A DNA stretch of 64,000 nt from Carcharhinus amblyrhynchos. Taxonomy: Eukaryota. This document shows positions 3,790 to 24,969 of the stretch, piece by piece (position 1 is the stretch's first letter; the number at the start of each line of letters is the position of its first letter). The DNA is taken from positions 26,660,001 through 26,724,000 of the forward strand of contig OZ336887.1 of assembly GCA_965287045.1 (NCBI GenBank). Reading direction: 5' to 3'. Made by a program: the position numbers and the translations under genes. The notes beneath the pieces are model-generated. The model had not been told where the DNA came from, made no database searches, and saw only the letters and a program-made list of their open reading frames with translations.

Positions 3790-5285
3790 TCAAAAGCTAC
3801 AGAATAGTGATAATGAGGGGCTTTTGTTATCCTAACATACATGAGGATACTAAAAGTTAAAAGGACAGAGAGATGTGGGAAGAATTATTTGTCGTGTGTC
3901 CAAGGGAACTTTGTTGATCAATGTATTTCTGGCCCATATAGAAGGAGACATTCCTGGATCCCAGAATGGATGAGTCAAGTGGATCCAATTTCAATAGGCA
4001 AACATTTAGGAAACAGTGATCTTAAGAAATAAAAGCACAGAATAGTGGAAAAACTCAGCAAGTCTGGCAGCATCTGTGGAAAGAGAAACACAGTTTAACA
4101 TTGTAAGTTTGTATGACTCTTCTTCCGTTTCTCTCTCTCCACACATGTTGCCAGACCTGCTGAGTTTACCCATTTTCTGTTTTCTTTTCAGATTTGCAGC
4201 ATCTGCAATATTTTGCTTTTATTATAGCATCATAAGGTTTAGGTTAGCTATGAAAAAGGATAAGGAGTAATAATACCTAATTGGAAGCGAGCCAATTTCA
4301 GTGAAATGGATCGAGGCCAGGAAAATTAGAATCAAAGATTGGCAGACAAAACAACTAGAACAATGGGCTGCCTTTAAAGAGATGGTTCAGATGCACTCAA
4401 GAAATATTGTAATGAGAGAGAGAGGTAGGGCAACCAACTTCAGAAATACCTGGATATTAAAAGAAATGAAGAGGAAGATAAAATAGGAAAAAAAGGATAC
4501 ACATAACAGCTGTCAAGTTGATAATACAAGTGAGAGTCATGCTGAATGTAGAAGAGTCAGAGGAATGGAGAATTGCAAATGTTACACTTGTTCAAAACAA
4601 GGACAAGGGTAAATCCAGCTACAAGCCAGTCATTTAAACTCTAGTGGGATACCTTTTAGAACTAATAATCTGGACTAAATGAACTGTTAGTTGGATAATT
4701 GGGGATTATTAGGAAAAGCCAGCATAAGGGTAAATTGTATTTAACTAATTTGACTGAGTTTCCTGATGATGTAACAAAAGGAGTTGATTAGGCTAAAGTG
4801 GAGTAAATGAACTTCCCAAACTTTTACAAATTGCACAATAAGCTTGCCAGCTAAACTGAAGCTCATGGAATGAAACAAAGTGGCAGCTTGGATACAAAGT
4901 TTGCTGAGTGACAGGAAACAAAAGTTTGCCGATAATTACTATTTTTTTGTACTGGACAAATTTGTTACAAGATTCCCCAAGGGTTGGTACTGGAGCCTCT
5001 GCTGACCTGATGTTGGGTGTGCAGGGCAGAATTTCAGAATTTGCAGATGATAGAAAACAGGGACAGACTGCAAACTGATGAGGAGCACAATGGTAGACTT
5101 CAAGAAGACATAGACACATTGGTGGATCAGGTGGACATGTGGCAGATCAGACTGAATGCAGAGTGATATATCACAGTGGGAAGAATGAGAAGAGGCAATA
5201 TAAAGCAGAGACCTGGGTCTATACGTGCACTAATTGTTGAAGGTGGTAAGACAGGTTAGAAAATGGTAGTTTATAAAGGCAAGGG
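3790..5285 (+). mobile_element. Old fragmented CR1 LINE ORF2
   Basis: Degenerate motifs (HLGNSD, NVTL-FK, CLTNL-EF, FADD) in the correct order with many stops. Confidence 0.7.
4027..4223. mobile_element. Penelope-derived inverted-repeat element (second family), inserted in CR1
   Basis: AAACTCAGCAAGTCTGGCAGCATCTGTGGA ... TCCACACATGTTGCCAGACCTGCTGAGTTT imperfect inverted repeat with tail; relatives at ~5815-5930, ~25300-25400, ~30050-30140 and ~62540-62650. Confidence 0.6.
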
Positions 5286-9375: not shown

Positions 9376-10113
9376 CTGGGGTAAAATCATTAAGGATCAA
9401 AAAATAACCTTAATTATTCTAATTAATACTATAATGGAGCCAATTTTCAATTGTTGTTGCTCAGTTAGTGTTGGAAAACAGGACAGGCAGTTGAAAGAAA
9501 TCCTCTTTCCCTGGTCACCGTGAGATAAACTTCAGGCAAGCCTCTAAATGGAGAGCCACTGGTTCCACACGAACCATACAGAATCCTACATAAATACACA
9601 AACTGCAATACTATATTCACAAGAGCTACTGCTAATTCTTCCTCATGCATGTGGGGACTGAAGGAATAGTATAACCTGCAGCCAACCATTCTGTGACTCA
9701 CCCCCTGGAGTTCTTCCCCATAGATTGAAACTAACTCAGCAGACATGGGAAAACCGGCGAATATAGTATATTTGGACTTGCATTCAAGAAGGTGTCACAC
9801 AATAGATTATTATTAAAAAAAAAGACTCTTAATATATTATCAGGGGTGGAGGATTAGTTAATGGAAAGAAAATAGAATAATAAGTTGGGGGTGGGGGCAC
9901 AGACTACAAAAATGAGGGTTGGGCCTGAACTGTTTGCAAGTTATATCAACAGCCTGGATGAAGTGACCACTGTATCCAAATTTGCTGACAATACAAATGT
10001 AGAGAGAAAAATAAGTTATTAGGAAATGCAAACAGGCTGCAGAGTGATGTAGATAGGTTAAGTGACTGGCCAAGAACACTGATATTCTGAGGTACCTGGA
10101 TGTCCTTGTACAT

Positions 10114-10339
10114 GATGTGGAGATGCCAGCGTTGGACTGGGGTAAAACAGAAAGAAATCTCACAACACCAGCTTAAAGTCCATCAAGTTTATTTGTAGCA
10201 AACGCCCCAAGCTTTTGGAACACGTTGTTCCTTCATCCCAGCCACCTGACGAAGGAACAACGTGTTCCGAAAGCTTGGGGCTTTTGCTACAAATAAACTT
10301 GATGGACTTTAAGCTGGTGTTGTGAGATTTCTTTCTGTT
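10114..10339 (-). mobile_element. Penelope-like fold-back element with 9-bp TSD and 92-bp inverted repeat
   Basis: Arms 10146-10237 and 10248-10339 (3 mismatches), 10-nt loop, 32-nt tail homologous to that of the 987-1097 element; TSD CTTGTACAT at 10105-10113 and 10340-10348. Confidence 0.85.
10240..10282 (+). ncRNA. Minimal hammerhead-ribozyme motif
   Basis: AGCCAC-CTGACGA-A-GGAAC-AACGT-GTTCC-GAA-AGCT-T-GGGGCT: both core boxes, 5-bp stem II, palindromic AGCT in place of stem III, stem I with one mismatch. Confidence 0.6.
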
Positions 10340-10896
10340 CTTGTACATCTCAGAAGCTTAACGTGCTGGTACAGCAAACAATTAATAAAGCAAATGGTAT
10401 ACCAGCATTTATGACAAAGGAATAGGCGTATAAAAGTGGACAAATCTTATTGCAATTGTGTGAAGCCTTGATGAGACCACAGCTGAGTACTACACAATTC
10501 TGGCCTCCTTACTAAAGGAAGGATATATGAGTCTTGGACAGAGTGCAACAAAGGCTCAACAGGCCGATTCCTGGAATTAGGGGTTTGTCCTATTAGGAGA
10601 GATCGGCAAGGCCTATAATCCCCTAGAATTTATGGGAATGAAAAGAATGAGAGGTGATCTCATCAAATGTATACAATTCTTAAGGGATTTGATAAAATGG
10701 ATACTGGGGGGGATGGTCCCAAGGCTGTGAAGTCTAGAACTAGGAGTCAGCAATTTAGGTCTGAGATGTTGAGAAATTTCTTCATTCTCAGAGGGGTTGT
10801 CAAACATATTGAAGACTAAGATCGACATGTCTCAGATGTAAAGGGAAATAAAGGGTATGGGGATACTGTGGGAGGGTGCAGTTGAGGTTCATGATC

Positions 10897-11235
10897 GGGG
10901 CGGCACAGTAGCACAGTGGTTAGCACTGCTGCTTCACAGCTCCAGGGACCTGGATTCAATTCCTGGCTCGGGTCACTGTCTGTGTGGAGTTTACACATTC
11001 TCCTTGTGTCTGCGTGGCTTTCCTCTGGGTACTCCGGTCTCCTCCCACAGTCCAAAAGATGTGTGGGTTTGGTTGATTGGCTGTGCTAAAAAAAATGCCC
11101 CTTAGTGTCCTGGGATATGTAGGATAGAGGGATTAGTGGGTAAAATTTGTAGGGATATGGGGGTAGGGCCTGGGTGGGATTGTGTTCATGCAGACTTGAT
11201 GGGCCGAAAGGCCTCTTTCTGCTCTGTAGGGTTCT
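10897..11235 (+). mobile_element. HE1/V-SINE-like tRNA-derived SINE, full length
   Basis: GGGGCGGCACAGTAGCACAGTGGTTAGCACT head with A/B-box-like motifs, central domain GGTACTCCGGT..CCTCCCACA, CR1-like tail; TSD ATGATC at 10891-10896 and 11236-11241. Confidence 0.88.
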
Positions 11236-12128
11236 ATGATCAACTATGACCACACTGAATGATGGAACAGGGGCTGAATGCTCCTATTTCTTATGCCCTG
11301 GAGCCATCTCTTCTGGCTTGGCTCCATTAAAGAGCCACTAAATTTCCTGCCTTGGACTGTTGAGCTACCACTCAATGCAAAGAGTAGCTCGTTAGCCCAG
11401 TGCAAACATGACTCCAATTAATATTGCATGACAATTATTAGTTGAGAAACGTAATTGTGCTGACCATCTGATATAGGAAAATGTTGAAAAGCACCAAGTT
11501 ATATTATGAAAAGCAGATTTTCAAATAATTAACTTGTTCAGGGAGGAAAATGATATCAGCATTCAAGACCTTGAATTAGTAAGAGGTTTAAATTTCACAC
11601 AAAGATAATTGGGATGATTGTCAAAATTAAGGATTAATGTGAAGAAAATTATATTCGTCGGAGTTGACTACAAAATATATTTAATTCAATTCTACAGTTG
11701 GCGGACACTGCAGGCATGGTGGAGGGAGTGTTTAATGTGATGAATGTGATGGAAGTGGGCTTCATTGTTCTGGATGATGTCGAGCTTTGAGTATTGTTGG
11801 AGCTCCACAGGCAAGTGAAGAATATTCCATTTTGGCTTATGCCTAGGTAGTGAAAGGTTTTGGGGAGTCAGCATTGCCTCTCACCTTGTAGCCATAATGT
11901 TTAAGTCGCTGGTTCAGTTACGTTTCTGGTCAATGGTAATCATGCAGGATACTGATGGTATTGAATTGGCAGAGGGACGTTTTTGGATGAAATATTAAAT
12001 AGAGGTTCCATTCTCCTCTCAGGTGGACATAGAATGTCCAACAGCACAGCAGGGCAACCCTTCATTGTGTACGGGCTAATCTTTATTCATCAACTAACAT
12101 GCAAGAAATTATCTAATTATTTCTCTCC

Positions 12129-12450
12129 GGGCGGCATGGTGGCACAGTGGTTAGCACTGCTGCCTCACAGTGCCAAGGATCTGGGTTTAATTCTGGCATC
12201 AAGTCATCGTCTGTGCGGAGTTTGCACATTCTCCCTGTGTCTGTGTGGGTTTCCTCTGGGTGCTCCGGTTTCCTCCCACACTTCAAAGATGTACGGGTTA
12301 AGTTGATTGGCCATGCTAAATTGCCCCTTAGTGTCAGGGGGGATTAGCAGGGTAATTAAGTGAGGTTACAGGGTTAGGGACTAGCTGATATTGTGGTCGG
12401 TGCAGACTCGATGGGCCAATGGCCTCCTTCTGCACCGTAGGGATTCTATT
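12129..12450 (+). mobile_element. HE1/V-SINE-like SINE
   Basis: Same structure as the 10897 copy. Confidence 0.88.
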
Positions 12451-13050
12451 TCTTTGAATGTGGCTTGCAAGATCTTGCTGAGTGCAAAATTGATTTTCTA
12501 CATTACAACTATGACTATACTCACACAGTATATCAATGGCTGTAAAGGGCTGCGGAATGTCCAGAAATTGTAAACATCAAGATATAACTGCCTCTCTTTC
12601 TAAGCAAAAATTCTGAAGGCAACATTTAAAATTCACATGTTTAAAGCAATACCAGACCTCCTCCCAGTCATTGTATCATCTTTCTCAATGCTGTAAACTG
12701 CTCCTTCCTTGCCTTCCATCTTGAGCATCTCCTTCCCTCGCTGCTCAACCACTTGCATGTGACTAATCCAAACACTGAAATCCCCCCCAAAACCGTGCCG
12801 CTTCTTTTAAAAATGCAGTTTTTAAAACTAATGTTTAGGCTGTACTTCTTAAGTTTTCTTCTTTGACTTGGTGCCCATTGTTTTCTGTTGTGCCTTGGTA
12901 TTTTTTTCCAAATTAAAGGGTGTGACTGGTATTATTGCTTACACAGAAAGAGTCTTCTTTCACAACCACAGCCTAGAGACATCAAAGAGAAACTTTACCA
13001 CGAAGCGCCAGATTTTGAAATTGCATTTCTTTCCGTATGGCAAAGGATAC

Positions 13051-23846: not shown

Positions 23847-24227
23847 CTGCAAAACACCAATCATATTATTGTGACGCTTAAAGTCACCACAGTCCCAAGT
23901 GTCCACAGGCTGTGACTGGTGGTGTCTTTAACTGGAGGATCACCACACATCAGGTGAGGGGCAATGTTGAGAATTGGGGCCTTCATGAATAACCTGGATT
24001 GCCAACAGACTCATTTAGTATAGTGATACCAATATAGACAAAAAAAGGGACAATTCAAAGATAATATTTGATGTGTACAATACTGTCAGTTTTTCCTCTC
24101 CAGGACCCATTATTGAAGAAAAGAGGAAGGGATTAATGAGGAAAATTTCAGGCCCAAACTTGGCAGAGGGGAGGCAGGTCACGCGGTGTCAGAAAGGATG
24201 GGATGGGAGGTGGGAGGGCATGCGTGC

Positions 24228-24878
24228 AGCGTGCACAGTGCCTGGGGGCGGGGGTGGAGAGTGTAATGTACATGATGGGGGAGGGGGTGTGTAATGTACA
24301 CAGTGCAGGGGGCAGAGGGGTGTAATGTACACGGTGCGGGGGGGGGCGGTGTAATGTACATGGTGCTGGGGGGGGGGTGCAATGTATACAGTGCCAGGGC
24401 GGGGGGGGGGGGGTGTAATGTACACGTTGCTGGGGGCGGGGGGGGGGTGCTGTAATGTACACAGTGCTGGGGGCGTAATGTACATGGTGCGGGGGGGGGT
24501 ACAATGTACACAGTGCTGGGGCGGGGGGGTGTAATGTACACAGTGCTGGGGCGGGGGGGTGTAATGTACACGGTGCCGGGGCGGGGGGCTGTAATGTACA
24601 CGGTGCCGGGGGGGGGGGTGCAATGTATACAGTGCCAGGGCGGGGGGGGGGGGGGGGTGTAATGTACACGTTGCTGGGGGCGGGGGGGGGGCTGTAATGT
24701 ACACAGTGCTGGGGGCGTAATGTACATGGTGCGGGGGGGGGGGGGGGGGTACAATGTACACGGTGCCGGGGGCGGGGTGTAATGTACACGGTGCCGGGGG
24801 CGGGGGGTGTAATGTACACGGTGCCGGGGGGGGGGTGTAATGTACACGGGGGCGGGGGGTGTAATGTACACGGTGTGG
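24228..24878. repeat. G-rich minisatellite (~21 units of ~23-40 bp) in DRG2 intron 1
   Basis: Unit core GTGTAATGTACAC(A/G)GTGC followed by a variable poly-G/GGGCGGG tract. Confidence 0.95.
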
Positions 24879-24905
24879 GTGGTGTATTTTATTCGGGGTC
24901 TTTAC

Positions 24906-24969
24906 CTTTGTTTTTCTGGGTCCGGGAGATTTCTTTCTCGATCTCGGAGATTTTCTCTAAAATCCCCAT
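24906..24969 (-). CDS. DRG2: DRG2 (developmentally regulated GTP-binding protein 2) coding exon 1, 64 nt
   Basis: Minus strand GTC-ATG-G (good Kozak) encodes MGILEKISEIEKEISRTQKNK, then a GTAAA donor; matches the DRG2 N-terminus as I recall it. Confidence 0.97.

Follow-up and report, generated by a model that had tools for sequence, protein, structure and literature searches.

A hammerhead-bearing hairpin in a U12-type intron of DRG2 as the likely head-to-head stub of an autonomous Penelope-like element

Introduction

A U12-type intron of DRG2, in the 64,000-nucleotide stretch of Carcharhinus amblyrhynchos DNA analysed here (the window), holds a near-perfect inverted repeat with a hammerhead motif on one strand. 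Is this a mobile element in its own right, kept in an orientation that spares the host transcript, or the debris of a larger one? A preliminary description favored the former, a non-autonomous, ribozyme-bearing derivative of a Penelope-like element (PLE) whose core was broken on the host strand in keeping with selection against self-cleavage. We argue that the hairpin very likely consists of two head-to-head copies of the last 125–137 nt of an abundant autonomous PLE, left by what was likely one target-primed insertion and likely inert since. The layout is already described for PLEs, whose insertions can combine an inverted pLTR, a one-sided tail and a 9–10 bp target-site duplication (TSD), according to the available text of PMC3846280 and PMC8557442.

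The insertion and its host intron

The host intron spans 9376..13050 on the minus strand and is of the U12 type with GT-AG ends. It opens with GTATCCTTT at 13050, a site of the form RTATCCTT, carries a branch-point motif of the form CCTTRAY at 9396-9389, near the 3′ AG at 9377-9376, and joins its exons in frame. These exons encode a DRG-type GTPase and match Pfam MMR_HSR1_Xtn at positions 2-27 (below the cut-off) and 29-59 (above it). In the accessible tables of PMC6717393 a minor intron is listed for human and mouse DRG2, with a 5′ site that differs from the window's by its last letter, and DRG1 is absent from the minor-intron entries. Splice sites, branch point, reading frame, Pfam match and tables together confirm the position given in the preliminary description. 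Single-exon searches of the PDB gave no hit that identified DRG2, and the preference for DRG2 over DRG1 also leans on known protein sequence.

The hairpin lies ~730 nt from the 3′ splice site, in an older decayed LINE fragment (9930..10800, plus strand; limits approximate) that repeat depth also marks and that we take by eye to be CR1-like. Two arms, 92 nt each and 97% complementary, face each other across a 10-nt spacer. The tail-bearing arm (10146..10237, minus) is element-sense on the DRG2 strand and truncated within the hammerhead core; the tailless arm (10248..10339, plus) is element-sense on the plus strand and ends ~33–36 nt short of the ATG position, on its upstream side. The tail (10114..10145, minus), which only one of the arms has, corresponds to the 32 nt that directly precede the ATG of the ORF in full-length copies of the element. 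The unpaired spacer (10238..10247, plus) is at once the extra 5′ reach of the tailless arm and the 5′ strand of hammerhead stem I, and its junction has ~2 nt of microhomology between the arms. All three mismatches between the arms fall at CpG sites. The insert folds at −170.8 kcal/mol (z = −23.6; 0/200 shuffles equally good), and fold and coordinates agree with the architecture first described: two 92-bp arms, three mismatches, a 10-nt loop and a 32-nt tail.

The TSD needs revision. The 9 bp originally reported are an exact repeat (10105-10113 and 10340-10348), but the duplication is more likely 13 bp, with one mismatch between its left (10101..10113) and right (10336..10348) copies; 12–13 nt is the mode in short hairpins, found in 22 of the 38 with a called TSD (50 examined, of which 7 had no TSD call and 5 no tail match). 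The longer TSD explains in part why the left flank and the right-arm end are 71% alike. Read on the minus strand, the last 3 nt of its left copy also serve as start codon of the element, and the ends of other family copies accumulate at 10110-10113.

Inside the duplex, the DRG2 sense strand carries the element's AATAAA (10188..10193, minus; mirror copy at 10292-10297, plus), which is conserved in 99/116 family copies and is followed, within the U12 intron, by a GU-rich stretch. Pairing in the duplex would mask it as a potential intronic poly(A) signal. On the same strand (10114-10200) the tail is able to base-pair with two upstream stretches, both conserved, around the internal start site, as alternative stems or a pseudoknot; these sequences are too conserved for a covariation test.

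Contigs from organisms B and C (~2–2.5% flank divergence) run 20–28 letters into the element from both flanks, an overlap that is consistent with a shared insertion but shorter than the 31-letter rule for calling one. In a contig from organism G (flanks ~6% divergent) the site is empty, with 42 letters against the window's 280; the organism E contig begins at 10306 and is compatible with both a filled and an empty site.

A second, smaller hairpin of an older subfamily (974-1110) has 37-nt arms, an 11-nt spacer, one tail and no hammerhead; it is flanked by a 13-nt TSD (974-986, 1098-1110) and oriented opposite to the main hairpin. Because the last DRG2 exons were not found within the window, it probably sits in a later intron of the gene. 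A GC-rich tandem repeat, degenerate and open in more than one reading phase (24150-24950), lies close to the first DRG2 coding exon at ~24957.

The parent element

A DNA search with the hairpin returned 4,934 candidates, the top scorers being hairpins of the same size with flanks and centers of their own. Copies that run 5′ into a GIY-YIG/RT reading frame were reached through a pattern located immediately upstream of the hammerhead core. One long copy, L041, is identical to the window arm at 92/99 aligned letters, with one gap, and continues into the end of the ORF. Such continuation of the arms into an RT/GIY-YIG ORF bears out the Penelope-like origin proposed earlier. The autonomous element, present as a direct tandem in L161, has a 3,026-bp unit and an 893-aa ORF (RT plus GIY-YIG); many open frames of 917 codons, recovered with an RT query, contain this ORF. 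Numbered from its ATG, the window's tail covers −32 to −1 and its hammerhead core begins at −127, with arms that extend to ~−125 and ~−137.

The 893-aa ORF P0001 matches Pfam RVT_1 (E 9.6e-10), and its GIY-YIG endonuclease was read, without a Pfam call, from the motif VYLIRCKKGCPEAWYIG and downstream residues. Set against the description in the accessible portion of PMC8557442, P0001 has a DKG motif and a CCHH motif with two cysteines inside GIY-YIG; RT is joined to EN by a CX4CxxC linker, and that source gives a CX2-5CxxC linker as common to Neptune and Nematis. By linker and motifs we place the parent provisionally among PLEs of the Neptune/Nematis type. Its family shows partial tandem pLTRs, an inverted 5′-truncated copy and a one-sided tail of 30–40 nt.

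The ends of the element number tens of thousands in this genome: a 21-mer of the older subfamilies has 48,464 exact matches and a 25-mer of the young subfamily 15,203. The young subfamily (L161, L163-L186) includes many intact 893-aa ORFs at 98–100% identity and probably is, or recently was, active. In the first 5 Mb of G000:C1 several loci are present in two to four copies whose flanks are shared, as segmental duplications or assembly redundancy.

Head-to-head insertions and their origin

Head-to-head insertions form a continuous size series from <200 bp to >3 kb; the window's arms come from one source, and its insert belongs to the short end of this series of the 3,026-bp element. Exactly one tail is present in 67 of 71 such insertions (none in three, two in one; L029, L030, L060, L074-L081, L084, L086, L090 and segmental duplicates were dropped), and the inverted pLTR with a single tail reported for the window is thereby found to be general in this set. 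The tail arm runs to the ORF's ATG, most tailless arms stop between −30 and −45, and the same one-tail layout recurs in kilobase-long young copies.

Several observations tie the two arms to a single source. On the window's arms a mirrored variant pair (10183/10302) is a minority letter, at ~3–5% of family depth. In the 28 hairpins most similar to it, ranked by likeness to the query and hence a sample biased towards it, 8 rare variants are mirrored on both arms, against ~0.5 expected by a rough hand estimate, and 98 are unmirrored. Arms diverge by 7.2% within a locus and 10.2% between loci. For old hairpins the one-source signal is modest, as the partner arm is the nearest arm in just 6 of 28, and arm-to-arm conversion after insertion could be an alternative source of mirrored variants.

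Arm lengths are paired as well. In 38 young insertions read by hand (six duplicate loci and the ambiguous L306 dropped), the 5′ ends of the arms lie ≤25 nt apart in 26 (permutation mean 8.3, 0/20,000); in long pairs they lie ≤45 nt apart in 10 of 15 (permutation mean 2.3), with near-symmetric junctions such as −652/−650 and −406/−405. Both excesses over permutation mean that one arm is not independent of the other. In 28/37 (p = 0.003) it is the tailless arm that is longer and in 9/37 the tail arm, and 12 of the 38 young pairs are asymmetric by 40–811 nt; given these asymmetric pairs and the nine with a longer tail arm, no single joining route covers all cases. The junctions of L138 and L140 contain short inserts that were copied from element sequence close by. 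Short templated insertions of this kind are a signature of polymerase-theta end joining.

We posit that the RT/endonuclease would cut the two target strands ~13 nt apart and that two cDNAs, one per strand, would be primed at two sites of one RNA, the ATG and ~−35. Synthesis would stop near the 5′ edge of the hammerhead, and the cDNA ends would then be joined, either as one cDNA folds back or through microhomology, at positions that nearly coincide; any hammerhead function would have belonged to the parent RNA. Two-site, two-strand priming is what we infer from genomic products, and the two start sites appear to resemble those of an anole element studied in vitro.

A mini-element, palindromic like a MITE or akin to a retrozyme and transcribed and re-inserted as a unit, would account for the thousands of similar-size hairpins (7 and 19 short pairs per first 100 matches listed), and non-autonomous PLE derivatives do exist as tandem retrozymes, according to the accessible text of bioRxiv 10.64898/2026.07.22.740005. 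We give this reading next to no credence, and consider it largely refuted. Read as a unit that moves by itself, the non-autonomous derivative of the preliminary description is not supported: the window's junction pattern has a single match in 2.9 Gb, all 28 nearest hairpins differ from it at junction or center, the size series runs unbroken up to full length, and the arm extends into the ORF elsewhere. Retrozymes, moreover, are head-to-tail tandems and the window's insert is head-to-head; neither a fixed unit in many copies nor a head-to-tail tandem with at least two hammerheads was found. One older-subfamily junction does recur at three places (L128, L133, L250; tail on opposite arms in two), and it may reflect rare copying of a hairpin as a unit or a favored templated insertion. 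Another reading is that the second arm needs no priming of its own, being made by self-priming on an antisense template, as proposed in PMC3846280 (available text), or by fold-back of the cDNA started at the tail. Near-symmetric junctions even in long copies and the near identity of young arms (0 differences in 613 nt at L295) speak for it, yet we judge it unlikely: fold-back of a tail-first cDNA predicts that the tail arm always reaches further 5′, which misfits most cases, as the tailless arm is usually the longer, and fold-back of a tailless-first cDNA cannot yield a tail without a second primed cDNA.

The stop zone

If two primed cDNAs made the arms, where did they stop? The anchor samples were drawn from the first 8–15 Mb of one contig. 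A downstream anchor gave 61 deduplicated arms. Of these, 22 terminate within 19 nt on the upstream side of the core, a rate of 0.036 per nt at risk; the following 171 nt hold 8 ends, or 0.0024 per nt. The zone was chosen after looking at the data, and its repeat in 70 young insertions is weaker: 0.016 per nt inside it, ~0.004 downstream of it, 0.006 immediately upstream, and 0.001 within the ORF. Arm 5′ ends thus accumulate immediately upstream of the hammerhead, where the RNA perhaps starts. At the edge of the stop zone lie an initiator-like and a TATA-like motif. A similar initiator/TATA-like pair is described in the available text of PMC3846280. Hammerhead-cut RNA is not supported as the main template, with ends ≤5 nt from the cut in 3/61 older and 1/64 young copies.

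These observations invite a strong-stop model, which we hold to be doubtful. RNA would start ~142–145 nt upstream of the ATG and be polyadenylated after the AATAAA ~80 nt upstream of the ATG position of the downstream repeat, so that RT would have no start sites outside the 5′ UTR. The two cDNAs would reach the 5′ end of the RNA; longer copies would need a retrovirus-like strand transfer across the −142 to −60 repeat, and failed transfers would leave paired short arms. If true, the model would give one account of pLTRs, partial tandems and the pile-up of ends, and would link a telomerase-related retroelement to LTR-type strand transfer. In a cap-G test for an RNA start at −142/−141, the base before truncation is G in 11/20 and 8/24 non-long copies (60 loci), letters that junction microhomology gives equally. 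Of 16 full-length copies, a single one has its end between −146 and −126, a result that makes a simple single-start model less likely. The conserved YAG at −142/−141, tried as a splice acceptor, was rejected for now: truncated copies share no upstream exon. In the literature outside subscription, to which our search was confined, no paper states a strong-stop or polyadenylation model for PLEs, nor does a shark PLE paper.

The hammerhead and the host transcript

The plus strand carries a minimal type I hammerhead (10241..10281) with a predicted cut after 10276. It consists of stem I, the core CTGACGA (10246-10252), stem II (10254-10268), GAAA (10269-10272), the palindrome AGCT and U17 at 10276, and the span 10246-10276 shows the conserved core, the unpaired base 9/10.1, G10.1-C11.1 and the palindromic 15-16 region. 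AGCT is present in 120 and U at the cut site in 80 of the family's 131 distinct motifs. In helix II, 83 distinct blocks hold 289 paired cells against 250 ± 4 in shuffles (0/2,000), a figure inflated by related copies among the blocks; because helix II covaries across subfamilies, the hammerhead was maintained in parent lineages. Core, stem II, palindrome and covariation uphold the motif as first reported, with one correction: the second pair of stem I, formed in 80/131 motifs, is an A.G mismatch in the window copy and had been overlooked. The youngest lineages (L161 minus 4545-4580, family alignment) have A.C or A.G at this pair, and their stem II still covaries. The hammerhead search that the preliminary description had proposed, run against Rfam, gave no hammerhead in the insert at E≤10, only generic miRNA-hairpin matches below gathering scores.

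Within the hairpin the motif is predicted to be sequestered. In fold predictions, which leave proteins and kinetics aside, the pairing probability of stem II is 0.999 for the motif alone and <1e-6 in the insert and in transcription prefixes, and the 92-bp duplex is predicted to bury the hammerhead on both strands. On either strand, the antisense arm would be transcribed first and would then capture the hammerhead.

Could selection still have favored the insert's orientation in DRG2 because it keeps a cleavable ribozyme out of the pre-mRNA, with editing or small RNAs as the means by which the hairpin regulates the U12 intron? The core is indeed broken on the host sense strand, as first noted (CTGA lost, GAAA lost), the duplex is long and near-perfect, the insertion seems common to organisms B and C, and tandem retrozymes are depleted in Xenopus introns, as the accessible part of bioRxiv 10.64898/2026.07.22.740005 has it. 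We nevertheless find this very improbable, since both lesions are default outcomes. The core is broken on the DRG2 strand because the arm is truncated there and a CpG transition at 10216 removed the GAAA; in the 28 similar hairpins CTGA is missing from 16 tail arms, 15 of them by truncation, and the G of GAAA is lost at the same CpG in 9 of 56 arms. The intact plus-strand core, for its part, is predicted to be unable to fold, its stem I is mismatched and its H17 is U; as it is predicted to be buried too, orientation in DRG2 should hardly matter. PLE minimal hammerheads had no monomer activity in the accessible text of PMC4209133, and in that of PMC11167929 activity needed the element's protein. 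The orientation of a single locus, finally, is a coin toss, and organism G lacks the insertion. Selection against cleavage at this hairpin is not supported. DRG2 pre-mRNA would carry the 92-bp duplex, which is a plausible ADAR/Dicer substrate and probably a neutral passenger.

Implications

The locus is probably an ordinary stub of a Neptune-type PLE, one of what are probably several thousand such stubs, a total extrapolated from listed matches. Taken together, the family is a fossil record of an unsolved insertion mechanism. It supplies constraints that are testable in the in vitro Poseidon system: one tail, paired arm lengths, a tailless arm that is usually the longer, and a stop zone at the 5′ edge of the hammerhead. 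Thousands of near-perfect hairpins of 60–100 bp could also be a large source of dsRNA in this genome.

Comparison with known systems

In L1 twin priming, two target-primed cDNAs are joined by microhomology to give an inversion. There the cDNAs copy two different parts of the RNA, whereas one and the same part is copied in both of the window's arms, whose stopping points almost coincide. Closer in layout are Pen2/Pen2a of Adineta (PMC3846280; scheme in PMC8557442), which in the available text share the head-to-head arms, a one-sided tail of 30–40 nt, a short junction overlap, a TSD of similar size and heavy 5′ truncation. Unlike these, the window's stub has no ORF sequence, its tail ends exactly at the start codon rather than at codon 22, and the copy number runs to tens of thousands. 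Non-LTR retrozymes, as presented in the accessible text of bioRxiv 10.64898/2026.07.22.740005, are likewise non-coding, PLE-derived and equipped with a type I hammerhead, but they are head-to-tail tandems with at least two ribozymes per strand; the window holds a single inverted insertion with no sign of movement as a unit.

The motif itself resembles the metazoan PLE hammerheads of PMC4209133, so far as the accessible text describes them, in its intact core, the extra nucleotide between 9 and 10.1, G10.1-C11.1, the palindromic 15-16 region, a long covarying helix II and a short helix I; it differs from them in lying inside a 92-bp duplex and in a helix I mismatch common to part of the subfamily. 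The nearest mechanistic parallel is PAc, the Poseidon element of Anolis, whose protein, according to the available text of PMC11167929, both cleaves and extends the two target strands and initiates at a pair of RNA sites on either side of the tail, with a hammerhead upstream that is dispensable for insertion. That text reports no paired arm lengths for PAc. In PAc the starts lie 111–118 nt into the ORF, and hammerhead and ATG overlap, whereas the window's family would start at ~+2 and ~−35 and has its hammerhead ~95–130 nt upstream of the ATG; the parent described here also has the CX4CxxC linker, which Penelope and Poseidon lack in the accessible descriptions.
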